This document shows, one piece after another, positions 3,901-59,147 of a DNA stretch of 64,000 bases (the first letter of the stretch is position 1; the number at the start of each line of letters is the position of its first letter). Origin of the DNA: Eledone cirrhosa. Taxonomy: Eukaryota. The notes beneath the pieces are model-generated. The model ran no database searches. It was not told the origin of the DNA and saw only the letters and a list, made by a program, of their open reading frames with translations. Both the position numbers and the translations under genes were made by a program. The DNA is taken from assembly GCA_964016885.1 (NCBI GenBank), contig OZ024741.1:86738001-86802000 (forward strand), written 5' to 3'.

Positions 3901-3904
3901 ACTC

Positions 3905-8765: not shown

Positions 8766-9049
8766 GGTATATGACAACTGTAGTAGATTTAGAGAGGAAA
8801 AGTATGGGGGGATAACCTCTGAATAGGACAGACACAAAGCTATGAGTAGTGTCATGGGATTTAGCAAGGTGATGAGAAGGAGGAGGGTTGAAGGTGATCA
8901 TGGATAGAATGGTTGGGGTACAGTGATGGCGAGAATAATTACTAAGGAGTAATGGTGCTGGGGGTATGAATGGGTCAGGTCACATTTACATTCTATACTG
9001 TTAGGTGAGTTTTCTCCAGTACAACATGTTGCCAATCCTCGCAGTCCTT

Positions 9050-10150
9050 TATTGAGAGATTCAGTTTCCTAAGGTTGGGCTTCTCTACTTTATTCCATGT
9101 CTTTTCTATGTCTCGTACACAAGTCCTATTGACTAAGATTTCTTTGCCTTTCTTTATACATACATCTGTCATCTTCCATATGCATCAAATGTTCATACTA
9201 CACTACATTCAATTCCTCTTATACCCAGTTTACTTTTCAGCTCACTTATGCTACTTTGTTTATGTACAATGATGTTCCAATTAGATTGTTGCAAGTCAGA
9301 CATGTAGAAAAAACATGAAAAGTGTGGGAATTCCAAAGGGGCAGTATTTTGGGCAGGAATGACCTGGCACAATGGTTAGTGCCAAGTCATTCTTGGGGGA
9401 GAAGGCACAATATAACAAGAAGAGGAGGGATGAGTAAATCAGGACTGCCTAAGTTGAGGTGGCACAAGACAAGTTAACCTTGAGAAACAGAGACCATTGT
9501 AGTGGTAGTAAAGAAGCAGGGAAAGAAGGCAGCATATCTGCACACCAAAGACTGGAGTATGTCTGAGTGACTTTATGCTAGTTAGTTGAGTGGCTTATCT
9601 CTAGATGCAATTCAGGATGTCTGTGTGTGTGCAGCACCACCACCCTAGACACAAGAGCAGCACCACGTCATGGGTTGCATCTGAGTACTGCCGAGGATCA
9701 GCAATTGCTGAGGACAAGAATTTTAAATGTACTTAAAAAGAAAGACAAACCCCCAAGATGCAGTCCTAGCTATGCTAAATGACACATGCTCTTATAGGTC
9801 AAGAGAGGTCATGGGGATCAAAATTGTTGCAGGATCTAAATCAAACTACTAAATTGTAAAGAAAACAACCAGGCCAAAGTGTATATTAAAAAAAACAAAG
9901 TATGTTACTTCAATATGGAGTGAAGGTGTGTGAAGTAAACTTTAAAACAGAAGGACGTGTGTAGTTATGAGTCACATACTGGAAGTAACAGTGATCCTAT
10001 GGGTGGAAGGGGAAAGGAGAGGACCCCTGTCCTTGTTCAGATTTAACATGAGAAGTGTCTTGGATCTCAGGTGAAACCCTAATTTCTGGTCAGAGTTATG
10101 GTGTGAGTATGAGTCTTGGATTATGCAGCTAAACAAGAATGACAATCAGA
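9050..10150 (-). mobile_element. Heavily decayed non-LTR retrotransposon fragments (RTE 3' piece plus CRE-like RT)
   Basis: Minus-strand remnants such as SISEL..KLGIRGI and a decayed GVQQGDPL-like motif; boundaries are approximate. Confidence 0.45.
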
Positions 10151-11299
10151 GAGGACTGGCAATGTAAACAATTTTGCGTTTTTCCATCACACACATAATT
10201 ACCTATCTAGCAGTGGTACACAGGTGCTGAATATATATACATATATTTGTTTTGCAAGGTTTTTGATATGAAACTGTGTCGAAACCAATATTGTTATACT
10301 TGGGGAGGGTCATATTGTTATAATATTGCCAGAAATAATAACAGAACACACTCACTGTTTGGTTTGGATTGGTTTTCGCTTCTGTATCTTTTATATCTCC
10401 ATAGTTAATTTGTTTGGCAATCAATGTTTATCATTGATTGACCAACGGTTAAAAATATAGATATAAATATATATATGGTCTATCAAAGTTCTTTCGTCAC
10501 ACATCTGCGACAACATCACTGGTACTATCATGTTTTCTCCCATTGTATTGTAATGTCTACGTCTTTTTTATTATATTTATTTATTCTTGTCTCTGTCTCT
10601 GCGCATGCGTTTGCGTGTGTGTTTAATGTTTGGTGTGTTTTTGTATTCTATCTTTGTTCACTAGTGTGTGTTTGTATGTGTTTGTTGTACTTGTGTATAT
10701 ATTTATTTATTTATTTATATTTCCCTTAAGTCATAATTGTTTGTTTGGGTATGGTTGTTGTTGGTATTTAGGGTAGTTTTAATACTAGCCCTATATTGCA
10801 TGTGCGACCATTTTTCTCACCTGATCATTGTTTTGGGGTTCCTATATGGCTTTGGTCCATCCATTCCATCTTCCTATGGGAGTCTTTTTAGCCATTGAGG
10901 TTATGGTTGTGGTGGTGGGGGGAGTCTACCTTTTATAGGTCTTCTGGGGCAGAAACAGCTAAGGTCATGATTATCTAGGTATTCGGTGTCATAAGTAAGT
11001 CTAAGTAGGAGGCCCAGTTCATCTGTGCCGACGTCGCAGAACTCCACTTTGCTCTCACTGATTATTTCCACACACACACAAACACATATATATATATATG
11101 TATTCGCGAGTTTTATATCCTTTTGTTCTAGCGGTGGCACAGAGAAACAATCGACAACGTTGTTTCTAGATTATTGTACTTTGTCAAGATTGTCTCTTTC
11201 TGTCACTCACTAGAACTCTCAGGAATATATAGTATTCTCTAAAGTATACATCAGCTGATTAGCCTCATTTGCAAATAAGGTTAATCAGCGATGGTAGAC

Positions 11300-11625
11300 T
11301 CCTTATCTGGGATGCCACACACGTTCTCTGACAGCAACTTGGTGCATTTAACGACTAGTCCAGGCTTCGATGCTCGTCGGGCTGAAGAGGGAAAACTGTT
11401 GAAGTAACGGTCGCTCTCCGATAGTTTTGTGGTCAAGCCTGTGACAGTGGAGATTTTCGGTATTCGTGGCCCTCGGACCACAGCCTTACTGTTATTGGAG
11501 TGGAGTTGGCTACTCGCACTAGTTAGCCCCGCGAGTTGGAGTGACTGTTCCAGTGCATCCCCTTGCCTTCCTCTTGGGTAACCTTTTCCTCAGTCTCTCT
11601 ACTGGGACTACGAGATTGTCTAACC
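11300..11625 (+). mobile_element. CRE-like non-LTR retrotransposon 3' fragment
   Basis: ARRAEEGKLLKYRSLSDSFVVKPVTVEIFG (open in the paralog 48894-49166) resembles the AE..K..KY...P.A.E..G tail of restriction-like-endonuclease LINEs. Confidence 0.6.
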
Positions 11626-11693
11626 CTTAAACATATTTCTTTTTTGTTCTCTCAAGGTTACAGGACAACTAGCTTTGACTTCTTTAGTGTAAA

Positions 11694-13125
11694 CTAGCAG
11701 AATGGCCTGGCGTTGCTCGAGATTTGCTCTAGGGTTCTTATATATTTGATATATATTTATCCTTATCGAGCCTCGTGAAATAAATACGTTTGTTTATATT
11801 TTGTTATTGTGTATGCAAAAATATCTGTACACGAATATATAATTATATATATATATATATTTAGCAACGGAGGTGGGTGTTCGGAAAGTAAAATAACTAG
11901 GGTAAGAACGGTATGGAAGAAGTTCAGAGAACTACTGCCACTGCTAGCTGCAAAAGGCTTTTCCCTCAACATAAAAGAGAGACTGTATGATGCGTGTATA
12001 CGAACAGCATGTATACGATGCGTGTATACGAACAGCAATGTTACATGGTAGTGAGACCTGGGCGCTGTCTGTGGAAGACTTGTGTAGGTTAGAAAGAAAC
12101 GAAGCCTGCATGCTCCGATGGATGTGTAATAGTAATATACGCGAACGGCAAAGCATAAATGAATTGAGAGAGAGACTGGGCATAAGAGGAATCAAATGCT
12201 GTGTGCAAGAGAGGCGGTTGCGTTGGTACGGACATGTGATGTGTATGAAGGATGACAGCTGCATAAAAAGGTGCAGAGCACTAGAAGTCGATGGATACCG
12301 CGGAGTGGGGAGACCCAAGAAGACCTGGGATGAGGTGATAAAAGCCGACCTTACCCAATTACACCTCTCAAAGGTGATGACACGACCGTGACCTCTGGCG
12401 TCCCGCAGTAATACAGAAGACCCAACCCCCCACCGGTACAAGCTGAAGCTGAAGCATATAGACAATATGTCCGCACACCCACTGCAAAGCGGTCGTTGAG
12501 GTGCCATGGCAAAAAAGCACCCAGCCCACACTGTAAAGTGGAAGTGTAGGCGCCACAGAAAAAAGCACCCAGCACTCACTGTAAATGAGGTTGGTGTTAG
12601 GAAGGGCATCCAGCTGTAGAAATCAAGCCAACATCAGTTCCCGTATGAGCAAGACAAGGTCAGCCGACCGGACACTTACCACAACAGGACAACCCGTCTA
12701 ACCCATGCTAGCGTGGAAGAACGGACGTAAAACGGTGATGATGATAATGATATATATTAAAATAACAGATTAAAGTTTAAGCAAAGAATCGCTGCTTTCA
12801 CCCTTAACGGGATCTTCTGAAACTAAAAAAAATCAATCTGTGAACGTAGAAGTAAATATTTCGAAAAACGTTACACACTATATATACAGACAGATATTAT
12901 ATGGGCGAGACTTTATAGCTATGTATCTATCTAAAAAGAAAGACTAAGAATTATAGAGAGATCGCCTAATGCGGTCCCTAGGGCATTGAAAATTTGAAAT
13001 TTTCTTTGTTCAAAACACTCACACGACCATAAGTATTACATGTGTAAAGTTTGAAAACAATCAGTTGGGTGGTTCTCGAGATTTAGGGAGTCAGACAGAC
13101 ACATTCTCTGTTTTAGAAATATAGA
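11694..13125 (-). mobile_element. Non-autonomous Helitron interrupted by an RTE LINE
   Basis: Minus strand starts TCTATATTTCT..(TGTC)n at 13125 and ends with a subterminal hairpin remnant plus CTAG|T at 11694; paralog at 49279-50659. Confidence 0.7.
11861..12750 (+). mobile_element. 5'-truncated RTE LINE with (GAT)n tail, inserted in a (TA)n tract
   Basis: WKKFRELLPLL, AMLHGSETW, RLRWYGHV and GRPKKTW motifs; ends GATGATGATAATGA; paralog at 49446-50300. Confidence 0.9.
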
Positions 13126-13653
13126 CTAGCAGAAAACCACCCAGAAGGCGGTTTTCTGCTAGTCTATATATATATTACACACAGAGAAATGTATATATAT
13201 TTCTGTGTGTGTATATATATATATATATATTACACACACAGAAATGTATATATATTTCTGTGTGTATATATATATATATATTACACACACAGAAATGTAT
13301 ATATATTTGTGTGTGTATATATATATATATATATATAACACACACACAGAAATGTATATATGTTTCTGTAGCACTCCTCAATTCCCCCCTCTCTCCCTCC
13401 CGCTATCCCCCTCTTGTAGTCTGTCTCTTTATTTCACTCTCTCTCTCTACGTGTGCGCAAAAAACATTCTCACGCGCGCACGTTTTTTAGCGTCTATTCA
13501 CTCTCCCTCCCGCTATCCCCCTCTCGTAGTCTGTCTCTTTCTGTCACTCTCACTCCCTCTCTACGCGTGCGCAAAAAGCATTCGCATGCGCGCACGTGTT
13601 TCCACTGTCGGACAGACAGACAGAGAAATTGCTGGTTATATATTATAAGGAGA
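13126..13653 (-). mobile_element. Minimal Helitron unit (terminal palindrome plus 5' module)
   Basis: 5' end TCTCCTTATAATATATAACC at 13653; 3' end hairpin and CTAG at 13126; paralog at 50660-51205. Confidence 0.75.
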
Positions 13654-14998
13654 CTAGCAGAAAACCACCCGGTGGGCGGTTTTCTGCTAGCAAATCTAGT
13701 GTATATACTGATATTTTTGAGATTTGGATGAGAAAGGTTTTCGGCACCACATGTTCACCGTCTCTCGGTGTATCTTTTATGCATGTATAAATATATATGT
13801 TATCTATACGGTGAAATCTTTGAAATAAATATATGTTAAAACGAAAAAGGAGAAAAAGAGATTAGTGACGGAAATATAAACGTTATGATACATAAACGTT
13901 ATGATATAACGATGGAAATATATAAACGTTTATGATAAAATGATGGAAATAGAAACGTTTATATATAATGATAAGCCGAAACACGCGTAAGCCGAAACAC
14001 TCGTAAGTCGAAACACTCGTAAAGCGAAACGTATAAATAAAGATTAATGTAATGAATTTGAAAAGCATAGAGATTTGAAACCGCGTCTATAGGTGTGTAA
14101 ATTTCAGACAGACAGACAAACAAACAGAGAAATGCCCATTATATATTATAAGTAGACTATCTAGTACCCGTCCTTTGAACGGGTGAAGTAGCTTTCGATG
14201 TAGCTCATTAAAGTAAACAAAGTAAATTTGAATACATAGAAGAAATACGTACTTTATGTAAACATGAAAACTTAGCGCGTGATGGCTTAAACTTAAATAA
14301 CTTTTAATGTATGTGTGTGTAAACCAGTGTTCGAAATCGGAGACGCTGGTCGCGGAGAAAGATAACTCTTGTCATACTTAATCACGAACATTGGCAAAAA
14401 TAATCCAAATTTTGATATATCTCCAAAGGCCGCAATATCGATTTTTGAAAACCTGTGCCGCTCAATTACAGGTCTTATGCTAGAAGAAGCTCTGTAAAAA
14501 AATTTCAAAGAAATAGGATATATGAACCATCAATGAAAACAGATGTCGACACACACAAGCCTGTACTGAGAGATTGGAAGAAACCTGTGCAAAGTTTGAC
14601 CCATTGTCACTTTTATCGATTTTTTACCTAAAAAAAGTGGTTGTCAATTATTCGCAATATTGTGCCGACCTGCCCTGATAAATTTATGCTTGATTACAAA
14701 AAAAAATATTGAAAATCGGCGTTGCGGATCAAAAGTTGCTGCATCACAGACACAGAGAGACAGAGAGACAGACAGACAGACAGCAAGATATGTATATCTA
14801 TTTTTTTTTATAAAGCTTATATAATAATTTGTTGAATAATTATTATTTTTAATTAATATTTTAAAATTACCAAGAGATGAGAAGCATCAAGAGAGTTATC
14901 AAGAGAGCCAATTATCAACAGAGTCAATTATCAAGCGAGTCAATATGCACTTTGAATTTTTTTCCTATTAATATTTTAATTAGAATTTAATTTTGTTA

Positions 14999-15110
14999 GC
15001 CAAAGATACCTCAATTTTTAACAAAATCAGAATTAGAAAGGTTGTTTCTCCTCGATTTCGTTTTTAAAAAAATAAGGTATTTCGTCCTTTTTAGGACTCA
15101 TCAGTTTGGC
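14999..15110 (-). ncRNA. Type I hammerhead ribozyme in the RepHel 3' UTR
   Basis: Minus strand reads GCCAAA-CTGATGA-GTCCT-AAAA-AGGAC-GAAA-TACCT...AGGTA-TC-TTTGGC. The core is complete, stems I, II and III pair perfectly, and AUC cleavage is predicted between 15005 and 15004. Confidence 0.9.
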
Positions 15111-15136
15111 ATAAACGATGAATACATTGTTACACT

Positions 15137-18100
15137 TTAGTTCCTAAAAACCTCAAGAAAGACAACATTTTTTACTACACCATTCTGGTTTTCGGGAACT
15201 AAAATCGTAACATTTGCCGGATTTGTTACCCTGCTTATTGCAACATAGAACTGGCCATGCGAAAAGAAATCATTCAGGCAGCTTATACCAATATGTGATT
15301 TGTTGGAGGTCATCGCAAACGATAATTTAACAGGAAACTGTTTCCGGTAAAAATCGAATGGAACCCTCTCTTCTTCGCTATGAAGCTCAATTCTAGGCAA
15401 ATGAAACAATTGTCCCTTCTGAGGGCCCACCGCTACTTCGAGTTCGAGTATTCGTGTGTGGATATTTTTTACAACGTATTGAGTACCGTTGCAATGTCCC
15501 TCGGCGGGACATATGTTTCTGAGCAGAATAACCGGAGCACCTATCTTCAGTTTCAAAAGGTGATCCGGCATTCCAGGAAGAACTATCGAGTTCAAAGTGT
15601 CCACTGAAACATGATGCTTTCGGTCTGTTTGCTCGTGGTTACGATCAAACGAAGGGATTACTATTTCCCTACCGGGCAATCTGTCAAGGACTTTTTGATT
15701 GATCTCGTCTACATCCTTATTCGTGGGAGTAATGATTGCGCGATCGGTCACCCAATTCACATAATCATTCTCGCCCAACCTAGTTGACACATTAGGGTAT
15801 ATCCTATCTATCAATGGGTCAGGCGTGTCACCTGTCATGAGAAACTGAGGGGGGACTTCAAAGTTGTGGGTCCTCCGATTGTCCTGTCTGCGATTGGCGA
15901 CACCATCCCCAATCCTCAAAAGGAGGGCTTTAAAATCAATGGAAGCCTGATCGATCCCGTTGACCCTCATGTTTGTATTCAACTTGAAAATGTTGAAAGT
16001 ATTCCACGATGGGTGATTTTTTAAAGTAGAAGCGACAATTTGTGGTCGCTCTCCATTAGGATCAACTGGGAGAACTTGTCGCCAATCGCCGGAGAGTAGC
16101 ATGGTGACACCTCCGAAGGTTTTCTTGGATGGTTCCACCCCTCCGCGGACAAATCTTAGAGTTTTATCCAAAAACTCCATCAGGTCCCTACTGAACATGG
16201 GGGCCTCGTCCCAAATAATCAGGTCAAGTTTCGCAAGTTCCTTTGCGAGTTTTGATCCCTTCTGGATACTAATCGCTGTTTTATCTTGCGGATTCAAAGG
16301 CAACTTCATCCTTGAGTGCAAGGTTGTGCCGCTTTTAAGCAATAGTGCCGCAATGCCAGATGAGGCGCAAGCAGTCACCTTGTAACCCTCACTGGCAACC
16401 TTTTCTACTATCGCATTGATAAGATAAGTCTTGCCAGTTCCCCCGGGTGCGTCCACGAAAAAGTTTTTTCCCGAATTCTGCCTCACCGATTCCAATACGG
16501 AGTCGTAGAGCGCCCGCTGATCAGCATTCAGGGAGTTTTCAACCTCCAAAATGGACTCCGAGCTTGCTGTGCTCTCATAAGAAATCCCAATTTTCTGATT
16601 CTCAGGCACTCTAACCTCCTCGATTGGCTGGGGAATGTTGCAAGTATCCATTTTGGTGCCGTAATTTAGCAGGTAAGCGTAAACCTGGTGCAATGCCCTA
16701 TTGTGTATGATATCCACATCCGCAATGGGGTCTGCTCGGACTAAATCATGTGACATCCAGTCTTTGTGGTCATTCCACAGTGACAGGGCGTCAGTCGGCT
16801 TCCAAAAGTGGATAAGCATTGCGAACATCCTCCGCATCATGCGAGAGCTCATCGAAATCTGAGCATCATGCAATACTAAACTGATTTCGTTGTCCGCCTC
16901 CATGAGCTTGCGGAATACTGCTGCCTCTTTGAAGGTCGGAAAAACTTGATCGCCTACTGTTCTGAGATCGGTGTAGCACTTGGGACCTTTTGTTTTTAAA
17001 AGCAAAAGGTAGAGGGCGAAGGTTTCCTGATTACCACCTGAGTTTGGTAAAATGTTCGGCATGCGGGATATCTGATCACCCCTGGGAATGCCGAACTCAG
17101 GATCATTCTCGCCCTGTACTCGACGCTTCCAAAACCTTTCTTGGACCATCCAGACGTAAAATTTCGGAATATCCAAATACAAAAAATTGTTGGCCTTTTC
17201 ATCTTCTCGATTGAGAGTGAAAAATTCGGTCAATTTCGTCTTGGATAGTTTTTCCAGGGTTTTTGAATCGGGTTTAGCTAACTTGGGGTCATAAAAAACT
17301 TTTTGTTTCCCTTCGAGGTGGATATCCAGCTTTAGGATCGAGGGGTACATTCCGTATTGGGCCAGGCAGAGTAACCACCACATCGCCTCAACGCTGGACA
17401 TATACCTACCGTTAAGGTATATCCTAACCTCGTTCTTTTCCTGGTCATCCATAAGGTTCCCCTGGTCATCACAGACCTTTTCCACCTTATAGTTGATGTG
17501 GTCGGCACCTTTTAGTATATATTGAAATATAGTGACCCCGGCCACCACCTCTACGTTAATGTGGCACTGAAATATGATCCCAAGAAAAAGATTGTGTGGA
17601 ACAACATCCCTGCTTGTTACCACACACTTTTTTTTACCTTTCTGATGAATTTCCACCTGTCCACCATTATTATCGGGCGTTCTACGCCTGTATTCAGGGT
17701 AGTTAGCCTCGTTAAAATTGGTCACATTGTTATAGTCCTTCGGAAACATCTTAGAGCAAGAAGTTCCGTTTTGGGACTTTTTACACTGCTTCATACAAGG
17801 ACACCGGGGATTAAAAACACCGCAAGGACCGTGGATCATTTTTGTAATCACAAAATTATAGGCCAGCTTCTGATTTTTGGTATCCCCTGTCGGGATTTCA
17901 GCGCTAATGAGACTATCAACATCCTCCGTGGATGAAATCTTATCGGTCTCGGCCAACCAAATTAAAGCGTGGACATGTGGGAGGCCTCTTTTCTGAAATT
18001 CTATTTTGTAAGTGTATGCAACACATTTACCAAAAATACCTCTCTTTTTGATTTTCACATCAAAAAGAAGCCTCACACGTTCCATGAAACTCCTGCAAAT

Positions 18101-19480
18101 TAGATCAGGCCTAAATTTTGCAGTTTCATCTTTATTATTTCGAGATAATTCTTCTATTTCAGGCAGTTTAGGATTGGAGGTCATGGTCACAAAAAGGTCT
18201 GGACATCCAAATTCTCTGACCAGTGCCATTGAATCTCGGTACAATTTTTTGTACCACTTTGGAGTCCCAGGAGTCGATTCGGACAGGACGACGCCGACTC
18301 CAACCTCTGCAGGATTTTCACAATCCTTTAGAGTGTCGACCGATTCAAACCTATATGACCCCTTAATCCTTTGCTGATGCTTAACCTGAAACTGGAAATT
18401 AATGTAATCCAGACGCATTTTCATGTCTATCGCATACTGGTGCAACAGATTACCGCTCAATATAAGAGGGTTGAAAAAATTGTCCTGGACCATTAAATAG
18501 TACTTGATATACTGCAACAAAGTTTCTTTATGGCCAGTTTCTGTTTTTGGGTTCCAACGGCTCCACCCATTTTGGCCATAATTGAAAATAAGGGGATAGC
18601 CCAGAGGTTCATAAAACGGGCTTAGGAAGTCAACACGGACGTATCCTTGTTTTCCTGCCCGTTTTCTCATTAAAATGACCCTCCCAAGTTCCTTAATATC
18701 CTTCTCTTGGTAGAGCCCCGCTATTTCAGACACCGTAGGGAGAAGATGAGTTTTATTGGCAGGCAGACAATCCCCTAACACCAGCCTATATTCGGGCATC
18801 TGTTCGAGCATTTCGTATCCCGTTTTGAAAGTTCTTGATAGAATATTCTCATCCAGGATGAAATCATTGAACTTAGCCTGGATATAGTTCAGAATTGCAC
18901 GGTACCGAGGCTCGAACTCAAATTTTTCCCTCTCGAGTTTTTGGGTCTCCTTATCAAAGATGTGCACCTGAGCATATCTAGGTCTTTGGCCTGCTTGCGG
19001 CTCAAGTCGGACCATCGTTTGATACGAAAACCCATGAATTTTCATACTCGGCTTCACTTCACCGATTGGAAGCTCAGTACAGTGCATATTACTGAAGGCA
19101 AATCCTGTGTTAAGACACCTTGAGAATTTAGCGAACATTTTTGCATATTCGTCATTACCCTCATATAAACTGGCGATTTCCTCCCCTGGGCGTTCAAATT
19201 CAGGGAGTTTAACCTTGCCATTCATGCAACACAATCCAGGTGGCTCTAAGGGCAATTTGTACGCCCCGCAATGCTCACACGGATTGTCCTTATATTTGAG
19301 GTGGATTATCTCCGAGTCGAAATCCACCTCATCTATGGGCTTAAAAGCAATACGGAAGTATTTTGGGTCCTTTTTGAAGGTCCTATTGTAATAGGCCTCA
19401 GAGTGCCCAACTTTGTCCTTGTTCAATCTGATTTCCTGTTCTTCGGTAGTCTCAGATTGCTGAGTAGCATCTTTATGCAC
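15137..19480 (-). CDS. Helitron Rep/Helicase (HUH endonuclease + Pif1-like SF1 helicase), probably defective
   Basis: N-terminal CxxC..CC (CEHCGA..CCMNG); Rep motifs PDLFVTMTSNP, EFQKRGLPHVH and QYILKG; helicase motifs APGGTGKT, IIWDEAPM, GDWRQVLPV, HCNGT and FSHGQFYVAISRV. Starts at GTG rather than ATG. Confidence 0.95.
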   Translation of the reverse strand: MHKDATQQSETTEEQEIRLNKDKVGHSEAYYNRTFKKDPKYFRIAFKPIDEVDFDSEIIHLKYKDNPCEHCGAYKLPLEPPGLCCMNGKVKLPEFERPGEEIASLYEGNDEYAKMFAKFSRCLNTGFAFSNMHCTELPIGEVKPSMKIHGFSYQTMVRLEPQAGQRPRYAQVHIFDKETQKLEREKFEFEPRYRAILNYIQAKFNDFILDENILSRTFKTGYEMLEQMPEYRLVLGDCLPANKTHLLPTVSEIAGLYQEKDIKELGRVILMRKRAGKQGYVRVDFLSPFYEPLGYPLIFNYGQNGWSRWNPKTETGHKETLLQYIKYYLMVQDNFFNPLILSGNLLHQYAIDMKMRLDYINFQFQVKHQQRIKGSYRFESVDTLKDCENPAEVGVGVVLSESTPGTPKWYKKLYRDSMALVREFGCPDLFVTMTSNPKLPEIEELSRNNKDETAKFRPDLICRSFMERVRLLFDVKIKKRGIFGKCVAYTYKIEFQKRGLPHVHALIWLAETDKISSTEDVDSLISAEIPTGDTKNQKLAYNFVITKMIHGPCGVFNPRCPCMKQCKKSQNGTSCSKMFPKDYNNVTNFNEANYPEYRRRTPDNNGGQVEIHQKGKKKCVVTSRDVVPHNLFLGIIFQCHINVEVVAGVTIFQYILKGADHINYKVEKVCDDQGNLMDDQEKNEVRIYLNGRYMSSVEAMWWLLCLAQYGMYPSILKLDIHLEGKQKVFYDPKLAKPDSKTLEKLSKTKLTEFFTLNREDEKANNFLYLDIPKFYVWMVQERFWKRRVQGENDPEFGIPRGDQISRMPNILPNSGGNQETFALYLLLLKTKGPKCYTDLRTVGDQVFPTFKEAAVFRKLMEADNEISLVLHDAQISMSSRMMRRMFAMLIHFWKPTDALSLWNDHKDWMSHDLVRADPIADVDIIHNRALHQVYAYLLNYGTKMDTCNIPQPIEEVRVPENQKIGISYESTASSESILEVENSLNADQRALYDSVLESVRQNSGKNFFVDAPGGTGKTYLINAIVEKVASEGYKVTACASSGIAALLLKSGTTLHSRMKLPLNPQDKTAISIQKGSKLAKELAKLDLIIWDEAPMFSRDLMEFLDKTLRFVRGGVEPSKKTFGGVTMLLSGDWRQVLPVDPNGERPQIVASTLKNHPSWNTFNIFKLNTNMRVNGIDQASIDFKALLLRIGDGVANRRQDNRRTHNFEVPPQFLMTGDTPDPLIDRIYPNVSTRLGENDYVNWVTDRAIITPTNKDVDEINQKVLDRLPGREIVIPSFDRNHEQTDRKHHVSVDTLNSIVLPGMPDHLLKLKIGAPVILLRNICPAEGHCNGTQYVVKNIHTRILELEVAVGPQKGQLFHLPRIELHSEEERVPFDFYRKQFPVKLSFAMTSNKSHIGISCLNDFFSHGQFYVAISRVTNPANVTILVPENQNGVVKNVVFLEVFRN

Positions 19481-19549
19481 ACGGTCTTTTTCCTTCCTTA
19501 TGCCTTTTGAGTCCTAAGACCCCTGACCACTAGAACGCTGCCTATCTTT

Positions 19550-20743
19550 TCACTGCTTTTCAAGTCGCTTATTTCTTTGCGACTCGGTTTCAGAGGCCTT
19601 TTGAGCTTTTCTGCGTAAAGCTGTTTTCGCAGAGGCTTCGGTGCACTTATGCTGAGCCATATACTCAGCAACCAAAACTGGATCCAAAAAATATGTGGGC
19701 TTGCGTTTGGAATCTTCTGTCGGTTTTGCAGCTAGCAAAGTTTTATCAGCTGGAGGCGAAACTACCGCAGCTGGCAATACGTCTGCAGTGATTCCAGGCA
19801 ATTCGTTTCCAGTTTTGGTTATTTTTGGACTTTTTTGATCTTCCTCAATTATAATTGGCTTTTTATTGCCTTTTATAGTTGGGATTTGAGCTAAAACCGG
19901 GTTGGACAGAAAGGTTGAGGTTTTTCCATAATGATTTTCTTGGAAATTTATCATCAAGGGGTCAGATAGGTGTGCAGCCAGACCTAGTTGATTTAAATTA
20001 GAAAAAGTTTTTCTAATAGGGTCGAAAACAAAAACATTCTCATATAAAATGGGATTCACAACTTCCCTGCGATTTAAAAAATTAGACTCCAAAATTTTAT
20101 TGATATTATAGCAATGCCTGAAAATTTTTCTGAGCAGATAAATTTGATTCTGAGTGGAAAACTCAAAATTTGTGGGATTAGAATTTAGAACCCATATCAA
20201 AGAATATAAAATTGCAAAAAGACCACAATCAGTTCCATTAGTCTGCTGCTGCACATTTAGAACCCTGAACCTAAAAACGAAATTTGGGGTCAAGGAAAAA
20301 GTTTTGAATCCATTCAGAATTCCAATTTTTTTCACTGTAGCCCTGTGTCCATCATCAAGGTAATATTTAATCCGACCAAAAAAGTCAAAATTTTTGAAGT
20401 GAAGACCCGAATCTGCCAGCTCAAGCACAGGTAATGAGTCTGCATAACCAAACTTGAAAGTCAAGAAATGGTGACTGTCGCAAATAACGCCAACAGAGGC
20501 AGACTCATTAGAGCCAATAGAATTTTCCCCAATATAATATGGGCCGAAGCCGAAAAAAATTTTGTTTGGCAGCTCTAATTGCGCCTTAATTTTATTCAAA
20601 AAATTGTATACTAACATATTTGAATACCAGGCACTATTGGAATCAACAATAGCAGCGTCCTGAAGGTCATTACCAAACACAAATTCGCGAGAATTAGTGT
20701 TTAAGGCTTGGAAGGTGGTAAAAAAATGCACAAAATCTTCCAT
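19550..20743 (-). CDS. Ulp1/C48-like (clan CE) cysteine protease domain ORF, in frame with RepHel
   Basis: Order WYSN..VYNFL, SHHF (His), LADS (Asp), QQTNGTDCGLF (Gln/Cys) matches SUMO-protease-type catalytic motifs; the C-terminus ETESQRNKRLEKQ resembles the charged repeats at RepHel N-termini. Confidence 0.75.
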   Translation of the reverse strand: MEDFVHFFTTFQALNTNSREFVFGNDLQDAAIVDSNSAWYSNMLVYNFLNKIKAQLELPNKIFFGFGPYYIGENSIGSNESASVGVICDSHHFLTFKFGYADSLPVLELADSGLHFKNFDFFGRIKYYLDDGHRATVKKIGILNGFKTFSLTPNFVFRFRVLNVQQQTNGTDCGLFAILYSLIWVLNSNPTNFEFSTQNQIYLLRKIFRHCYNINKILESNFLNRREVVNPILYENVFVFDPIRKTFSNLNQLGLAAHLSDPLMINFQENHYGKTSTFLSNPVLAQIPTIKGNKKPIIIEEDQKSPKITKTGNELPGITADVLPAAVVSPPADKTLLAAKPTEDSKRKPTYFLDPVLVAEYMAQHKCTEASAKTALRRKAQKASETESQRNKRLEKQ

Positions 20744-21119
20744 TCTTTTTTAAAAAAAATTTATTTTTAATAATATTTAAATAACTGGCGGTTAGAAAAA
20801 AATATTCCTATGAAATTTTAATCATACCATTAGGTGTGAATAAGGAAATATTTTTTTATTGTCAAAACAAATGTTCAAAAGTTAAACTTCAATTTTTTGA
20901 ACTATTTCCAACTTTTTCATGAAATTGAACACTGGACATTGGCTGCTGGAAATGGAAATTAAATCGTATTTAATTGTATTTAAATTTCTAACCTTATTTT
21001 ATTATTTTTATTTTTTCAATAAGAAATAAAAAAAAAACAACAAAAAAAAAATGGAGAAAAAAATTGAACAAATCAAATGTAGATTATGGAACTGCGCAAT
21101 CTGATTAATAAATTACCTC

Positions 21120-21285
21120 ATCAGCAGCAACCTTCTTCAAACGGTCCTTATTATCAGCAGCAACAACCACAAATTCAATGGCAACCTTCTTCAAACCACA
21201 AATTCAATGGCAACCTTCTTCAAATGGTCCTTATTATCAGCAGCAACAACCACAAATTCAATGGCAACCTTCTTCAAATGGTCCT
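21120..21285 (+). repeat. Q/P-rich minisatellite (54-nt and 29-nt units) in the Helitron 5' region
   Basis: CAGCAGCAACAACCACAAATTCAATGGCAACCTTCTTCAAATGGTCCTTATTAT units; copy number differs at ~25200, ~28920 and ~58612. Confidence 0.85.
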
Positions 21286-21507
21286 TGGCATGGTGTCGTC
21301 AGAACCGCCTCGAACTGGTTACTTCTGGCTTGTGCAAGGTGTCTCTATAGCAACCAGCGATTCCCTCGGCCTCAGTGACCAAAGTTAGTGGAGAGGGGAA
21401 GGTAATGTTTCTATAGCGACAGTGTTTCTCTTGGTAGTACCAAAGTGGAGAAAGGAAGGGGAAGGTAATATTTCTGTAGCACCTACATTTGAGTTTTAGG
21501 GAAGGAA

Positions 21508-21554
<47 letters not shown>

Positions 21555-21597
21555 GAAATGCCCATATATTTCTGTGTGTGTATATATATATATATAT

Positions 21598-23394
21598 AAT
21601 ATATTTAGAAACACACAGATACATGCGGACACACACATATACATGAATGCATCCGCACCCAACCGTGAGTTAAGGGTGCCAACTTCACCGATGTTGCTCA
21701 ATGAATGACTGGGACAGACCAATCCGGTTGAACTAGACTGAACTAGTATCAGAGTTAAAAATACATTATGAAGAGAGAAGAAACATTTAGATATAATTAG
21801 TAATAAAATGTATCATACCTAAACTGCTCCTAGATTCCTCGACTACGTAGTTTCGTGGCATAAACAAAAACAATACATCATAAAGATATAGAGTCCTTGC
21901 GAGGTCTGCCGACTTAGCAAGAGGATACCTCATTTTACTAGTCTCAAGAACGCGTCTACACGACGTGAGAAAGAATCCCAAAAGGCGGAGGGGGAGATAG
22001 TCACGCGATATAACGGTCGAGAAACAGAGCTAAGCCTCTTATAACCCCGAAGAAAATACCACGGAGGCGGAGGGGGTATTTATATCGAAGCCGTAGAAGA
22101 GGTGGTGAAGGAGGCGAGAAGTATGAGTAATAGAAGCTTTTCAGCAGTCCCCACACTTCAAAGGTTGCTCGACCAGAGGGAGTTATTAACAATATATTTA
22201 GAAACACACAGATACATGCGGACTCACACATATACATGAATGCATCCGCACCCAACCGTGAGTTAAGGGTGCCAACTTCACCGATGTTGCTCAATAAATG
22301 ACTGGGACAGACCAATCCGGTTGAACTAGACTGAACCAGTATCAGAGTTAAAAATACATTATGAAGAGAGAAGAAACATTTAGATATAATTAGTAATAAA
22401 ATGTATCATACCTAAACTGCTCCTAGATTCCTCGACTACGTAGTTTCGTGGCATAAACAAAAACAATACATCATAAAGATATAGAGTCCTTGCGAGGTCT
22501 GCCGACTTATCAAGAGGATACCTCATTTTACTAGTCTCAAGAACGCGTCTACACGACGTGAGAAAGAATCCCAAAAGGCGGAGGAGGAGATAGTCACGCG
22601 ATATAACGGTCGAGAAACAGAGCTAAGCCTCTTATAACCCCGAAGAAAATACCACGGAGGCGGAGGGGGTATTTATATCGAAGCCGTAGAAGAGGTGGTG
22701 AAGGAGGCGAGAAGTATGAGTAATGGAAGCTTTTCAGCAGTCCCCACACTTCAAAGGTTGCTCGACCAGAGGGAGTTATTAACAATATATTTAGAAACAC
22801 ACAGATACATGCGGACTCACACATATACATGAATGCATCCGCACCCAACCGTGAGTTAAGGGTGCCAACTTCACCGATGTTGCTCAATAAATGACTGGGA
22901 CAGACCAATCCGGTTGAACTAGACTGAACCAGTATCAGAGTTAAAAATACATTATGAAGAGAGAAGAAACATTTAGATATAATTAGTAATAAAATGTATC
23001 ATACCTAAACTGCTCCTAGATTCCTCGACTACGTAGTTTCGTGGCATAAACAAAAACAATACATCATAAAGATATAGAGTCCTTGCGAGGTCTGCCGACT
23101 TATCAAGAGGATACCTCATTTTACTAGTCTCAAGAACGTGTCTACACGACGTGAGAAAGAATCCCAAAAGGCGGAGGGGGAGATAGTCACGCGATATAAC
23201 GGTCGAGAAACAGAGCTAAGCCTCTTATAACCCCGAAGAAAATACCACGGAGGCGGAGGGGGTAGGACTCTATATCTTTATGATGTATTGTTTTTGTTTA
23301 TGCCACGAAACTACGTAGTCGAGGAATCTAGGAGCAGTTTAGGTATGATACATTTTATTACTAATTATATATAAATGTTTCTTCTCTCTTCATA

Positions 23395-24257: not shown

Positions 24258-25718
24258 CACACACAGAAATGTATATATATTTCTGTGTTTATATATATAT
24301 ATATATTACACACACACAGAAATGTATATATGTTTCTGTAGCACTCCTCAACCCCCCCTTCCTCCCACTATCCCCCTCTTGTAGTCTGTCTCTTTCTTTT
24401 ACTCTCACTCTCTCTCTACGCGTGCGCAAAAAACATTCGCACGCGCGCACGTGTTTTAGCGTCTATTCACTCTCTCTCTCTCCCTCCCTCCCTCCCTCCC
24501 TCCCTCCCTCCCGCTATCCCCCTCTCGTAGTCTGTCTCTTTCTTTCACTCTCACTCTCTCTCTACGCGTGCGCAAAAAACATTCGCATGCGCGCACGTGT
24601 TTCCACTGTCGGACAGACAGACAAAGAAATTGCTGGTTATATATTATAAGGAGACTGGCAGAAAACCACCCGGCGGGCGGTTTTCTGCTAGCAAATCTAG
24701 TGTATATACTGATATTGTTGAGATTTGGATGAGAAATATTTTCGGCACCACATGTTCACCGTCTCTCGGTGTGTCTTTTATGCATGTATAAATATATATG
24801 TTATCTATACGGTGAAATCTTTGAAATAAATATATGTTAAAATGAAAAAGGAGAAAATAAATAACTGGCGGTTAGAAAAAAATATTCCTATGAAATTTTA
24901 ATCATACCATTAGGTGTGAATAAGGAAATATTTTTTTATTGTCAAAACAAATGTTCAAAAGTTAAACTTCAATTTTTTTAATTATTTCCAATTTTTTCAT
25001 GAAATTGGACCCTGGACATTGGCTGCTGGAAATGGAAATTAAATCGTATTTAATTGTATTTAAATTTCTAACCTTATTTTATTATTTTTATTTTTTCAAT
25101 AAGAAATTAAAAAAAGTAACAAAAAAAATTGAAGAAAAAAAATGAACAAATCAAACGTAGGTTATGGAACTGCGCAATCTGATTAATAAATTACCTCATC
25201 AGCAGCACCCTTATTCAAATGGTCCTTATTATCAGCAGCAACAACCACAAATTCAATGGCAACCTTCTTCAAACCACAAATTCAATGGCAACCTTCTTCA
25301 AATGGTCCTTATTATCAGCAGCAACAACCACAAATTCAATGGCAACCTTCTTCAAACCACAAATTCAATGGCAACCTTCTTCAAATGGTCCTTGGCATTG
25401 TGTCAAGTCAGAACCGCCTCGAACTGGTTACTTCTGGCTTGTGCAAGGTGTCTCTATAGCAACCAGCGATTCCCTCGGCCTCAGTGACCAAAGTTAGTGG
25501 AGAGGGGAAGGTAATGTTTCTATAGCGACAGTGTTTCTCTTGGTAGTACCAAAGTGGAGAAAGGAAGGGGAAGGTAATATTTCTGTAGCACCTACATTTG
25601 AGTTTTAGGGAAGGAAAGACAGACAGACAGACAGACAAACAGAGAAATGCCCATATATTTCTGTGTGTATATATATATATATATATATATTACACACACA
25701 GAAATGTATATATATTTC

Positions 25719-25758
<40 letters not shown>

Positions 25759-25762
<4 letters not shown>

Positions 25763-27926
25763 TATAGACATAGAATATTCGAAAATATTCTGTATGTTTA
25801 TAATAAACATTTTGAAGACCTAATCGCTATAGAATAGAATACGTCACGTATTACAATTAGATTCTCGATAAAAGCAAGGGAAGTAATCTACGCGTTTCAT
25901 TCTTGTTAGAATTCATCAGGACTACATATCCAGTGCTTTTATCGAGAATGACACAGCTAGAGACTTATAGAATACTTAGCTGTGTACTGGAACTGGTTTG
26001 AAAGAGCGGTTGCCGGTCCGGCAGAAATTAGAAATTGGAATAAATGCTCTGAAATAGCGATATATATGTGAGTATAGACATAGAATATTCGAAAATATTC
26101 TGTATGTTTATAATAAACATTTTGAAGACCTAATCGCTATAGAATAGAATACGTCACGTATTACAATTAGATTCTCGATAAAAGCAAGGGAAGTAATCTA
26201 CGCGTTTCATTCTTGTTAGAATTCATCAGGACTACATATCCAGTGCTTTTATCGAGAATGACACAGCTAGAGACTTATAGAATACTTAGCTGTGTACTGG
26301 AACTGGTTTGAAAGAGCGGTTGCCGGTCCGGCAGAAATTAGAAATTGGAATAAATGCTCTGAAATAGCGATATATATGTGAGTATAGACATAGAATATTC
26401 GAAAATATTCTGTATGTTTATAATAAACATTTTGAAGACCTAATCGCTATAGAATAGAATACGTCACGTATTACAATTAGATTCTCGATAAAAGCAAGGG
26501 AAGTAATCTACGCGTTTCATTCTTGTTAGAATTCATCAGGACTACATATCCAGTGCTTTTATCGAGAATGACACAGCTAGAGACTTATAGAATACTTAGC
26601 TGTGTACTGGAACTGGTTTGAAAGAGCGGTTGCCGGTCCGGCAGAAATTAGAAATTGGAATAAATGCTCTGAAATAGCGATATATATGTGAGTATAGACA
26701 TAGAATATTCGAAAATATTCTGTATGTTTATAATAAACATTTTGAAGACCTAATCGCTATAGAATAGAATACGTCACGTATTACAATTAGATTCTCGATA
26801 AAAGCAAGGGAAGTAATCTACGCGTTTCATTCTTGTTAGAATTCATCAGGACTACATATCAAGTGCTTTTATCGAGAATGACACAGCTAGAGACTTATAG
26901 AATACTTAGCTGTGTACTGGAACTGGTTTGAAAGAGCGGTTGCCGGTCCGGCAGAAATTAGAAATTGGAATAAATGCTCTGAAATAGCGATATATATGTG
27001 AGTATAGACATAGAATATTCGAAAATATTCTGTATGTTTATAATAAACATTTTGAAGACCTAATCGCTATAGAATAGAATACGTCACGTATTACAATTAG
27101 ATTCTCGATAAAAGCAAGGGAAGTAATCTACGCGTTTCATTCTTGTTAGAATTCATCAGGACTACATATCCAGTGCTTTTATCGAGAATGACACAGCTAG
27201 AGACTTATAGAATACTTAGCTGTGTACTGGAACTGGTTTGAAAGAGCGGTTGCCGGTCCGGCAGAAATTAGAAATTGGAATAAATGCTCTGAAATAGCGA
27301 TATATATGTGAGTATAGACATAGAATATTCGAAAATATTCTGTATGTTTATAATAAACATTTTGAAGACCTAATCGCTATAGAATAGAATATGTCATTCT
27401 CGATAAAAGCACTGGATATGTAGTCCTGATGAATTCTAACAAGAATGAAACGCGTAGATTACTTCCCTTGCTTTTATCGAGAATCTAATTGTAATACGTG
27501 ACGTATTCTATTCTATAGCGATTAGGTCTTCAAAATGTTTATTATAAACATACAGAATATTTTCGAATATTCTATGTCTATACTCACATATATATCGCTA
27601 TTTCAGAGCATTTATTCCAATTTCTAATTTCTGCCGGACCGGCAACCGCTCTTTCAAACCAGTTCCAGTACACAGCTAAGTATTCTATAAGTCTCTAGCT
27701 GTGTTATTCTCGATAAAAGCAACTGGATATGTAGTCCTGATGAATTCTAACAAGAATGAAACGCGTAGATTACTTCCCTTGCTTTTATCGAGAATCTAAT
27801 TGTAATACGTGACGTATTCTATTCTATAGCGATTAGGTCTTCAAAATGTTTATTATAAACATACAGAATATTTTCGAATATTCTATGTCTATACTCACAT
27901 ATATATCGCTATTTCAGAGCATTTAT

Positions 27927-27931
<5 letters not shown>
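25759..27931 (-). mobile_element. Retrozyme-like tandem array: 310-bp unit x ~5.3 plus ~540-bp inverted end, in a (TA)n tract
   Basis: Near-identical units at 25761, 26071, 26381, 26691, 27001 and 27311; orientation flips at ~27391; (TA)n on both sides. Confidence 0.9.
25883..25925 (-). ncRNA. Minimal type I hammerhead ribozyme (5 minus-strand copies every 310 bp; 2 plus-strand copies at 27420-27462 and 27731-27773)
   Basis: GTAGTC-CTGATGA-ATTCT-AACA-AGAAT-GAAA-CGCG-TA-GATTAC, enclosed by a 15-bp stem TTCTCGATAAAAGCA/TGCTTTTATCGAGAA. Confidence 0.88.
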
Positions 27932-27958
<27 letters not shown>

Positions 27959-28375: not shown

Positions 28376-29315
28376 CTGGCAGAAAACCACCCGGTGGGCG
28401 GTTTTCTGATAGCAAATCTAGTCTATATACTGATATTGTTGAGATTTGGATGAGAAATGTTTTCGGCACCACATGTTTACCGTCTCTCGGTGTGTCTTTT
28501 ATGCATGTATAAATATATATGTTATCTATACGGTGAAATCTTTGAAATAAATATATGTTAAAATGAAAAAGGAGAAAATAAATAACTGGCGGTTAGAAAA
28601 AAATATTCCTATGAAATTTTAATCATACCATTAGGTGTGAATAAGGAAATATTTTTTTATTGTCAAAACAAATGTTCAAAAGTTAAACTTCAATTTTTTT
28701 AATTATTTCCAAATTTTTCATGAAATTGAACACTGGACATTGGCTGCTGGAAATGGAAATTAAATCGTATTTAATTGTATTTAAATTTCTAACCTTATTT
28801 TATTATTTATATTTTTTCAATAAGAAATTTAAACAAAAACAACAACAAAAATTGAAGAAAAAATTGAACAAATCAAACGTAGGTTATGGAACTGCGCAAT
28901 CTGATTAATAAATTACCTCATCAGCAGCAACCTTCTTCAAATGGTCCTTATTATCAGCAGCAACAACCACAAATTCAATGGCAACCTTCTTCAAACCACA
29001 AATTCAATGGCAACCTTCTTCAAATGGTCCTTGGCATGGTGTCAAGTCAGAACCGCCTCGAACTGGTTATATCTGGCTTGTGCAAGGTGTCTCTATAGCA
29101 ACCAGCGATTCCCTCGGCCTCAGTGACCAAAGTCACTGGAGAGGGGAAGGTAATGTTTCTGTAGCACGTGTTTTAGCGTCTATTTACTCTCTCTCTCTCT
29201 CCCTATCCCCCTCTCGTAGTCTGTCTCTTTCTTTCACTCTCACTCTCTCGCTACCCACGTGTCTCCACTGTCGGACAGACAGACAGAGAAATTGCTGGTT
29301 ATATATATAAGTAGA
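28376..29315 (-). mobile_element. Shortest deleted Helitron unit, forming the outer 5' end of the array
   Basis: Same palindrome and the same internal deletion joint as 24655-28375; ends A|TCTACTTATATATATAACC at 29315. Confidence 0.8.
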
Positions 29316-29910: not shown

Positions 29911-31403
29911 ATGGAAGACATTAATCACACAAACACAACAGTTTTCAACACTCTATATTCAGTTACAGTGGCATACAGTAGTGAGAAACCATTATGTAGT
30001 GAAGCATTTACTAAACAAATATTTTGATTCTAATAGTAATTAATTTAACAAGTCACAAAAGAATTCACACTGGAGAAAAACCCTATCACTGTGAAATATG
30101 TGGTAAATCATTCTCTGTTAATTCTAACCTTGTAGTTCACAAGAGGATACATACTGGAGAAAAACCGTATGAATGTGAAATATGTGGAAAATCTTTTAAC
30201 ACTAACAGTTATTTAACAACACACAAGCGAATAAACGCTGCAGAAAAACCATTTCACTGTAAAATATGTGGCAATTCTTTCACTGAAAATTCTAAGCTTA
30301 CAATTCATATACGTAGACACACTGGAGAAAAACCGTATTGCTGTGAAATATGCGGGAAATCTTTTGTCAATAATAGTTATTTAACCAGTCACAATAGAAT
30401 ACACACCGGAGAGAAACTCTACCACTGTGAAATATGTGGGAAATCTTTCACTCAGAATTCCAGTCTTATTATTCACAAACGTAGCCACACTGGTGAAAAA
30501 CCATGTCATTGTGGAGTATGTGGAAAATCTTTCTTTATCAATTCGAGTCTTGTTATCCACCAACGTAGACACACTGGAGAAAAACCATGGCCCTGTCTAA
30601 TATGTAGGAAATCATTCTCAAATAATTCAAGTCTTGTTATCCACATATGCAGTCACACTGGAGAAAAACCTTATCATTGTGAAATATGTGGAAAATCATT
30701 CACAAATAATTCAAATCTTGTTATCCACACTGGTGAAAAACCCTTCGACTGTGATATATGCGGAAAATCCTTTGTTTCCAACACTATTTTAACAACACAC
30801 AAAAGAATACATACTGAAGAAAAACTATTTCACTGTGAAATATGTGGGGATTCTTTCATTAATAATTCGAATCTTGTTATCCACAAATGCAATCACACTG
30901 GAGAAAAGCCATATCAGTGTGAAATATGTGGTAAATCATTTGTGATAAATAGTGTCTTAAGAACACACAAAAGAATACATACTGGAGAAAAACCTTATCA
31001 CTGTGAAATATGTGGGAAATCATTCATAAATAATTCCCAACTTGTAGTTCACAAAAGAATACATACTGGAGAAAAGTCCTTCCATTGTGATACATGTGGG
31101 AGATATTTTGTCTTTAACAGCTATTTGGCAATACACACTAGAGATAACCCATTTCACTGTGAAATATGCGGAAAGTCTTTTGTTGAAAATTCCAAGCTTA
31201 CAATCCACAAACGTAGACACACTGGAGAAAAACGGTATCGCTGTGAAATATGTGGGAAATCTTTCTCTCTTAATTGTAGTCTTGTAGTTCACAAACGTAG
31301 TCACACTGGAGAAAAACCCTATCATTGTGATATTTGTAGGAAGTCATTTAGCAGTCTTTTAAAAAGACATGAACGAATACACACTGGAAGGGAAAGCATT
31401 TAA
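29911..31403 (+). pseudogene. Tandem C2H2 zinc-finger gene (~15 fingers open over 30024-31403), 5' end disrupted
   Basis: [16 protein letters not shown] repeats. The ATG at 29911 (MEDINHTN) is out of frame with the finger ORF after a ~0.27-kb deletion relative to the paralog at 61233. It could still be used through splicing. Confidence 0.8.
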
Positions 31404-52644: not shown

Positions 52645-52670
52645 ATAAACGATGAATACATTGTTACACT

Positions 52671-59046: not shown

Positions 59047-59147
<101 letters not shown>

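Follow-up and report, generated by a model that had tools for sequence, protein, structure and literature searches.

A putative clan CE isopeptidase in frame with the RepHel transposase of a decayed canonical Helitron

That a transposase may carry a protease for ubiquitin-like modifiers is already an established theme, and the presence of Peptidase_C48 domains in Helitrons is likewise in print. In Helentrons, an isopeptidase of the VTD or OTU class lies within the RepHel frame. The VTD domains of zebrafish Helentrons are active deubiquitinases and deneddylases, acting on ubiquitin and NEDD8, and not deSUMOylases, with no reaction to SUMO probes in the assays reported; the authors suggested that these domains prevent degradation of transposition proteins (PMC9741609). 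For Helitron-like elements more broadly, HELIANO (PMC11417382) names Peptidase_C48 and STPRs among 20 stably carried domains, with STPR repeats in canonical Helitrons, and places 17 domains, these two included, in ORFs separate from RepHel. Among DDE cut-and-paste transposons, the Ginger1 transposase bears a C-terminal Ulp1 fusion, Mutator elements carry Ulp1 domains, and OTU and Ulp1 domains alternate between families (PMC2836005). Helraiser, a reconstructed bat Helitron of 1,496 aa, combines a zinc-finger-like motif, an HUH Rep, and an SF1 helicase with TC and hairpin-CTAG ends, and its described domain list contains no protease (PMC4778049). Since Helraiser transposes, the core reaction can evidently do without a protease.

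Here, we describe a related locus in Eledone cirrhosa (assembly GCA_964016885.1, contig OZ024741.1, positions 86,738,001 to 86,802,000), a stretch of 64,000 nucleotides (nt) that we refer to as the window. Positions are those of the window, and all annotated features lie on its minus strand. Like the Helentron proteins, the RepHel frame at this locus includes a predicted isopeptidase for ubiquitin-like modifiers, but the protease is of another class (clan CE), the Rep motif is of the Helitron form, and no endonuclease is present, whereas Helentron VTD and OTU domains occur in endonuclease-bearing hosts. In contrast to the separately encoded C48 domains of HELIANO, the window protease is in frame with RepHel, and the two are fused in a relative, P0006; its C48 match (E = 0.004 to 0.006) is also weaker than the HELIANO threshold of 1e-3. 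Unlike the Ginger1 domain, it is N-terminal, and it accompanies an HUH rolling-circle transposase and not a DDE enzyme. Like Helraiser, the element has a zinc-finger-like motif, Rep, helicase, and hairpin-CTAG ends. The original prediction, which was made from the sequence without database searches, had called a Ulp1-type domain at the RepHel N terminus less familiar; HELIANO already names Peptidase_C48 as a Helitron-borne domain. The novelty lies, as far as the sequences go, in a protease fused in frame to the N terminus of RepHel in a canonical Helitron and in the divergence of this domain, which scores below threshold and lacks the standard SUMO contact. None of the papers that we examined describes a C48-RepHel fusion.

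Structure and decay of the element

A frame from 20743 to 15137 spans 1,868 codons plus a terminal stop (15137 to 15139) and contains two internal stops, at codons 398 and 410. Its first part is an ORF of 397 aa (20743 to 19553, with the ATG at 20743) that is closed by a TGA at 19550 to 19552. Shuffling the same DNA 2,000 times gave open stretches of at most 175 codons, and the length of this ORF is far beyond chance. It opens with a predicted clan CE (Ulp1/SENP-like) cysteine protease domain (aa 1 to 231; 20051 to 20743), followed by a low-complexity linker (aa 232 to 384; 19592 to 20050) that exceeds its counterpart in P0006 by about 100 aa and ends in a basic segment, SAKTALRRK, common to the window, P0006, and P0004. 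Three charged repeats of 23 aa come next (aa 385 to 453; 19385 to 19591) and hold both internal stops. The RepHel part then comprises the CxxC...CC zinc-finger-like motif of its N terminus (aa 489 to 506; 19226 to 19279), the Rep (Helitron_like_N) domain (aa 745 to 928; 17960 to 18511; Pfam PF14214, E = 5e-41), and the PIF1 helicase core (aa 1405 to 1621; 15881 to 16531; Pfam PF05970, E = 2e-64).

Rep and the PIF1 helicase share one frame, as in canonical Helitrons (HLE1). Rep motif 2 reads EFQKRGLPHVH, with the HUH histidines at 17969 to 17977; the Leu between G and P (RGLPHVH) is the Helitron form, the corresponding residue being Ser in Helentrons (PMC4067079). No endonuclease domain follows the helicase, and no AP endonuclease family is found among the 16 Pfam rows. 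A GTCT microsatellite (21508 to 21554) in the 5' region of the element (20744 to 21580) had hinted at a Helentron (HLE2) identity, which we rejected in view of the Leu in motif 2 and the missing endonuclease. Judged by these features, the element is a canonical Helitron.

Downstream of RepHel, we identified a GC-rich hairpin followed by CTAG (14161 to 14184), in agreement with the CTRR that follows the 3' hairpin of canonical Helitrons. Two further hairpin-CTAG terminators lie beyond it, one at 13654 to 13690, which is the 3' end used by deletion derivatives, and one at 13126 to 13162, the third of the head-to-tail array. Each hairpin-CTAG end is followed by a new TC start, and there are three candidate 3' ends for the autonomous element. 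The second terminator closes a small Helitron of 503 bp (14156 to 13654) whose 5' end matches that of the protease-bearing element. Canonical Helitrons begin with 5'-TC and insert between A and T. Both long copies of the protease-bearing element have lost this TC end, and a TA/CA microsatellite now takes the place of about a dozen bases at the start of the family terminus; TC starts are kept in the sibling ends at 14156 and 29315. Two deletion derivatives (24655 to 25702 and 28376 to 29315, the second with an intact A-TC 5' end at 29315) join the 5' region of the element, up to 20778, to 13856 to 13654. The breakpoint at 20778 is 35 nt upstream of the protease ATG. The derivatives count as one event, because a single junction is common to both. 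They place the protease gene within Helitron ends and do not prove mobility of the whole unit.

The RepHel is damaged in both of its enzymatic parts. In alignments with the proteins P0012, to which the window RepHel is 45% identical, and P0013, an in-frame 4-aa deletion in Rep motif 3 (17519 to 17545) removes the first catalytic Tyr and keeps the second (Y1075), and an in-frame 6-aa deletion in a C-terminal helicase motif (15280 to 15310) removes the conserved QGQT segment. Two catalytic tyrosines and intact helicase motifs mark an active Helitron, a combination that the window RepHel lacks; Helraiser depends on its two tyrosines, and its reaction goes through a phosphotyrosine intermediate (PMC4778049).

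A second copy of the whole gene (52671 to 58264) has both of these deletions, with no difference between the copies there. This copy lies inside a 12.8-kb segmental duplication (8766 to 21607 versus 46366 to 59084) that includes more than 4 kb of host flank, in which the copies differ by 2.0% substitutions, and we therefore rejected it as independent evidence. The original prediction had noted that copy 2 shares both stops of the long frame. They are indeed present there, but the two copies are one insertion seen twice and lend no independent support: since the duplicated segment includes host flank, the shared stops show only that they arose before the duplication. Copy 2 has extra lesions of its own: its protease ORF contains an added stop as well as a frameshift, its RepHel has gained another stop, and 12 nt are deleted. 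The codon differences between the copies (9 synonymous, 33 nonsynonymous, and 2 stop) are close to the neutral expectation. The Helitron at this locus is dead and probably does nothing in the host today. The original prediction had also seen significance in its position inside a ZNF cluster; for a dead element amid a pile of Helitron ends, the ZNF setting looks incidental. One observation counts against this reading: between the copies, RepHel differs by 0.55% and the flank by 2.0%, a pattern not expected from neutral decay alone.

One could still imagine that the stops freed the 397-aa protease for use by the host while RepHel decays. The protease ORF of copy 1 is open, its ATG has an AAGA-ATG-G context, and all catalytic residues are kept. 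However, the ORF of copy 2 has both a stop and a frameshift, and the protease part has diverged like the host flank (2.2% versus 2.0%). The differences between the copies in this ORF are 3 synonymous, 16 nonsynonymous, and 1 stop, changes that cannot be assigned to either copy as there is no outgroup. We consider such an exaptation highly improbable.

The reading frame across two stop codons

Retranslation bore out the earlier description of an in-frame spacer between the TGA and the GTG at which the RepHel ORF had been taken to begin. This spacer is 69 nt long (19549 to 19481), reads KDRQRSSGQGS-stop-DSKGIRKEKDR in the RepHel frame, and contains the second stop, a TAG at 19514 to 19516. The charged repeats reported on both sides of the stops are there as well, as three units in exact 23-aa register; lags of 46 and 23 score highest, and the observed score was reached in 13 of 5,000 shuffles. 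The STPR domain is defined by charged repeats of 23 aa, and we take those of the window to be STPR-like. The Pfam STPR model gave no row at an E value of 10 or less for the window repeats, which are degenerate and contain two X. At the TGA, the other two repeat units have Arg or Lys and P0006 has Arg; at the TAG, the other two units have Glu or Thr. Each stop is 1 base away from a sense codon for the residue at the equivalent position of another unit.

P0006 is a distantly related protein of 451 aa (ENA record, single-member cluster) that stops at the equivalent of aa 577. It matches the window protease with E = 6e-15 and 28% identity (local score of 169, against a maximum of 71 in 1,000 shuffles) and aa 371 to 577 of the read-through protein with E = 3e-34 and 35% identity (score of 261, against a maximum of 53 in 1,000 shuffles). 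It is stop-free across the junction, the zinc-finger motif of RepHel included, and has RLEKQR at the place of RLEKQ-stop in the window. P0006 is the sole relative that spans the junction, and since its protein sequence alone was seen, splicing in its gene model is possible. P0004 is a protease protein that ends before any RepHel sequence. A search with the protease region against proteins of 696 to 2,000 aa found no full-length protease-RepHel protein among 521 candidates. A three-sequence alignment found none among 6,977 proteins of 238 to 1,012 aa; this search is insensitive here, because even P0006 and P0004 were missed. Both of the RepHel relatives recovered in a further search are without the protease, and tblastn against GenBank phage records returned no match.

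GTG is not a credible eukaryotic start codon, and we rejected the GTG at 19481 as the beginning of RepHel. No RepHel ATG lies ahead of the zinc finger; the first in-frame ATG past the stops is M507, just beyond the CxxC...CC ligands. Within 790 nt downstream of the TGA, there is no AATAAA or ATTAAA.

These features bear on whether the locus might encode two genes by design, the protease ORF ending at the TGA and RepHel being expressed by splicing, by read-through, or from a start of its own. Two stops within 36 nt, present in both copies, could be expected of such an arrangement, HELIANO puts C48 and STPRs in ORFs apart from RepHel (PMC11417382), and P0004 has the protease without RepHel. Eight GT-AG pairs could also bypass both stops in frame, but all have weak donors and no more than 7 pyrimidines in 15 nt, they would excise sequence that is conserved in P0006, and we rejected splicing across the stops with only these weak sites as candidates. 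Moreover, the copies are not independent, the 23-aa register runs across the stops, P0006 is open at the stop positions, and RepHel is damaged elsewhere as well. A design of two genes is therefore quite unlikely.

The stops are best read as decay, because they fall inside a 23-aa repeat, RepHel lacks a start, and P0006 is open there. In a relic with deletions in its catalytic motifs and neutral-like differences between copies, two further nonsense changes are to be expected. Very probably, both stops are point mutations that the inserted element acquired ahead of the segmental duplication, and the active ancestor would therefore have encoded one protein of about 1,870 aa. The single protease-Rep-helicase protein of the original prediction is thus the most likely ancestral product, given the open frame of P0006, the unbroken register, and the missing RepHel start; at the level of sequence, the fusion appears well supported, though by one relative. 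The prediction had named two outcomes that would count against it, the lack of a clan CE fold and a family composed throughout of separately initiated ORFs. What we found instead was a clan CE fold, described below, and a relative, P0006, that fuses the protease to the RepHel N terminus.

Fold and predicted substrate of the protease domain

The window domain matches Pfam Peptidase_C48 (PF02902) at 17.0 to 17.3 bits, under the curated cut-off of 20.7 bits, and the same holds for P0004 (17.2 bits) and P0006 (20.4 bits). Among the Atlas feature hits, 27 of 30 fall in C48 clusters, with a best score of 0.94. A homolog search over 1.84 billion representatives yielded nine proteins, four of which (P0001, P0002, P0004, and P0006) are related to the protease region over long stretches. 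P0005, P0008, and P0009 are C48 proteins that match mainly at the Cys motif. We dropped P0008, a plant transposon protein with a match limited to that motif, as well as P0003 and P0007, which are chance matches driven by repeats. P0005 and P0009, which have no visible link to Helitrons, served only to deepen the folding alignment. In single-sequence searches of the PDB, the window domain gave only E values of 0.1 or higher. A profile of the window with P0004, P0006, P0002, and P0001 gave four PDB matches, all to Ulp1-type proteins or OtDUB (E = 0.03 to 0.18); adding the single domains of P0005 and P0009 brought Ulp1 to E = 4e-9, partly via those two.

AF2 gave no usable model from the single sequence (pLDDT of 31.5). 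From an alignment of seven sequences, which included two Pfam-C48-positive proteins matching mainly around the Cys motif, it produced a model of moderate quality with a pLDDT of 66 and a pTM of 0.72, with aa 134 to 153 below 50. In a Foldseek search with this model, SENP5, SENP2, and Ulp1 lead (E = 2e-6 to 2e-5, with SENP5 at 2e-6). The VIA Z scores are highest for OtDUB (13.3; rmsd of 3.2 over 158 aligned residues) and SENP1 (12.6; rmsd of 3.8 over 169), followed by RickCE (12.6), SENP5 (12.4), and NEDP1 (10.5). The top 27 VIA rows are all CE-type folds (Z of 8.3 to 13.3), and the next, unrelated rows have Z of 4.3 or less. Taken together, the model predicts a clan CE (Ulp1/SENP) fold for the N-terminal domain, and the proposed Ulp1-like identity stands when checked by structure prediction.

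The His/Asp/Cys motifs of C48-type proteases, claimed from the sequence at the outset, are present as H92 (20468 to 20470), D111 (20411 to 20413), and C173 (20225 to 20227), together with an oxyanion Gln, Q167 (20243 to 20245). In a sequence alignment, His92...Asp111...Gln167-x5-Cys173 align with Ulp1 in order, and an N-terminal Trp, W39 (20627 to 20629), aligns too. The predicted active site of copy 1 looks intact. Ulp1, SENP1, SENP5, NEDP1, OtDUB, and RickCE resemble the window domain in fold, His-Asp-Cys order, oxyanion Gln, N-terminal Trp, and aromatic gatekeeper, yet it is only 12 to 17% identical to them, has Phe for the Trp that follows the catalytic His and Asn for Asp451 of Ulp1, and carries an insertion near aa 115 to 148 that is common to P0002.

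Phe follows the catalytic His in the window (F93; 20465 to 20467), P0002, P0004, and P0006. An aromatic gatekeeper at this position marks CE enzymes that cleave after Gly-Gly, and acetyltransferases have it too (PMC7391069); the motif does not separate the two. YopJ-type enzymes perform acetyl transfer with the same fold and triad (PMC7391069), and AvrA, HopZ1a, and PopP2 are among the fold matches (VIA Z of 8.7 to 10.0). These matches rank below the isopeptidases, however, and the sequence profiles yield Ulp1, SENP, and OtDUB only. We regard it as extremely improbable that the domain is an acetyltransferase. It is probably an isopeptidase, whose predicted cleavage site follows the terminal Gly-Gly of a ubiquitin-like modifier.

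Gly-Gly and Ala-Gly are the cleavage motifs of viral CE proteases. The original prediction had raised the possibility of polyprotein processing, in which the protease would cut itself off RepHel much as viral CE-clan enzymes process their precursors. An N-terminal position and a long linker would suit this role, the proteases of adenovirus, ASFV, and poxvirus are among the fold matches (VIA Z of 9.2 to 9.8), and Helentron OTU domains have been proposed to cleave RepHel subunits (PMC4067079). But the viral enzymes rank below the isopeptidases, the window read-through has no Gly-Gly in its first 1,026 residues and no Ala-Gly ahead of aa 584, and neither motif occurs anywhere in P0006 or P0004. 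With such sequences, self-processing is unlikely, and as an account of the domain we give it a very small chance.

The other role originally put forward was de-SUMOylation in the service of counter-silencing, with the fused domain removing SUMO from chromatin silencing factors at the element locus. This would agree with the SENP and Ulp1 chains that head the Foldseek and profile lists and with the dependence of piRNA-guided transposon silencing in Drosophila on SUMO and the ligase Su(var)2-10 (10.1101/533091). Against it stands the position of Asp451, which in Ulp1 forms a salt bridge to SUMO and is needed for SUMO binding, the D451N change abolishing it (PMC3216068). The equivalent residue is Asn in the window (Asn42), P0004, and P0006 and Ile in P0002, which accounts for all four close family members that cover the position. 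In addition, VIA places the deubiquitinase OtDUB first, in a tie with SENP1 and RickCE, and the Helentron proteases tested did not react with SUMO probes (PMC9741609). Matches to two ZNF ORFs showed no KRAB family among the best 25 of 36 and the best 25 of 27, respectively. A counter-silencing deSUMOylase is thus unlikely, and the claim of de-SUMOylation specifically is not borne out. SUMO is no more likely than ubiquitin to be the modifier that the protease would cut.

A proposed role for a protease tethered to a rolling-circle transposase

Hosts clear covalent DNA-protein adducts by SUMO or ubiquitin tagging and proteolysis. The ancestral gene would have had the order protease, linker, 23-aa repeats, zinc finger, Rep, and PIF1 helicase, and its RepHel would have joined DNA covalently through a 5'-phosphotyrosine. 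We tentatively suggest, at somewhat less than even odds, that the tethered protease would act on the transposase itself and on proteins close to the site of transposition, freeing them of ubiquitin or SUMO. Because the host tags and degrades covalent adducts, such a protease may prolong the life of the transposase and the intermediate. Overall, we lean toward reading the locus as a dead canonical Helitron with a single protease-RepHel gene, whose putative tethered isopeptidase would have shielded the transposase. The fuller proposal is possible but rather doubtful: an undescribed lineage of canonical Helitrons, in which a putative sub-threshold clan CE isopeptidase without the standard SUMO contact is fused to the RepHel N terminus and would shield the covalent transposase-DNA intermediate from removal triggered by SUMO or ubiquitin.

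For annotation, the protease domain scores too low for the Pfam cut-off, and fused domains can look like separate ORFs where a decayed copy has acquired stops. Decay stops of this kind may therefore partly explain the assignment of domains to a different ORF by HELIANO. In the papers that we examined, a role of such proteases in transposition is not demonstrated. The element class has a working cell assay in Helraiser, and the small size of the domain, together with its intact state in copy 1, makes the substrate of the protease directly testable. Unrelated classes of transposon repeatedly acquire proteases for ubiquitin-like modifiers, and the clan CE fusion would be one more independent capture. 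If the proposal is true, this would be the third class of protease, after OTU and VTD, that rolling-circle transposases have taken up by fusion for one and the same purpose.

Duplication of the region and its zinc-finger genes

A large segmental duplication (about 1-32000 versus 41000-64000) contains zinc-finger (ZNF) genes as well as the Helitron. Substitutions between the flanks of its two arms amount to about 2%, whereas the RepHel copies differ by only 0.55%, a low divergence that possibly reflects gene conversion. C2H2 zinc-finger arrays lie on the forward strand at 39881-41467, 30015-31403, 61404-63035, and 1-460; Pfam recognizes 17 zf-H2C2_2 stretches in one of the two open frames and 15 in the other, and the copy at 61404-63035 is frameshifted. 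In style and base composition, these arrays resemble octopus ZNF clusters. For Octopus sinensis, the HELIANO survey gives 55,718 insertions of HLE1, the canonical Helitron class (PMC11417382).

Repeats and debris around the element

Three 593-bp units in tandem (21598-23264), 99% alike, adjoin the element directly upstream and are missing from copy 2, its duplicate; a Pfam search with their 134-amino-acid open frame returned no match. In the element's 5' region, a T-rich stretch bounded by GT and AG is a candidate intron (20946-21116, reverse strand); it is preceded by 29-, 54-, and 83-bp repeats whose number varies among the four copies. Between the two deletion derivatives, at 25750-27932, a 310-bp satellite runs for 5.3 copies (99%), and after it comes a partial block in inverted orientation. 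Further mobile-element debris is found at 34714-35223 and 37870-38298 (reverse strand) and at 11975-12391, 49364-49948, 3786-4223, and 44202-44636 (forward strand). One piece is a reverse-transcriptase fragment (Pfam RVT_1, E=5.5e-5). The remaining pieces look like remnants of LINE, LTR-integrase, and DNA-transposase sequences, and the three such pieces searched against Pfam gave no matches.

Arrayed Helitron ends

Helitron ends form a head-to-tail array on the reverse strand at 13060-14185 and 50600-51735. Within it, CTAG abuts TC at 13654/13653 and 13126/13125, and CTAG-ATAG-TC occurs at 14161/14156. This arrangement fits repeated insertion at 3' ends or their read-through. The terminators at 13654-13690 and 13126-13162 are palindromes of unusual length, with 17-19-bp stems that include the terminal CTAG itself (-17.9 and -20.2 kcal/mol, respectively).

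Relatives of the protease and RepHel

Our homolog search of 1.84 billion representatives identified closer protease relatives, P0001 (66%) and P0002 (40%), but these are fragmentary. The Cys motif is missing from P0002, and in P0001 DCN stands in place of DCG; decayed protease relatives therefore exist elsewhere. The RepHel relative P0013 carries the Helentron-type Ser in Rep motif 2, and Pfam found no endonuclease in it, a reminder that the single-residue test separating Helitrons from Helentrons is not absolute.
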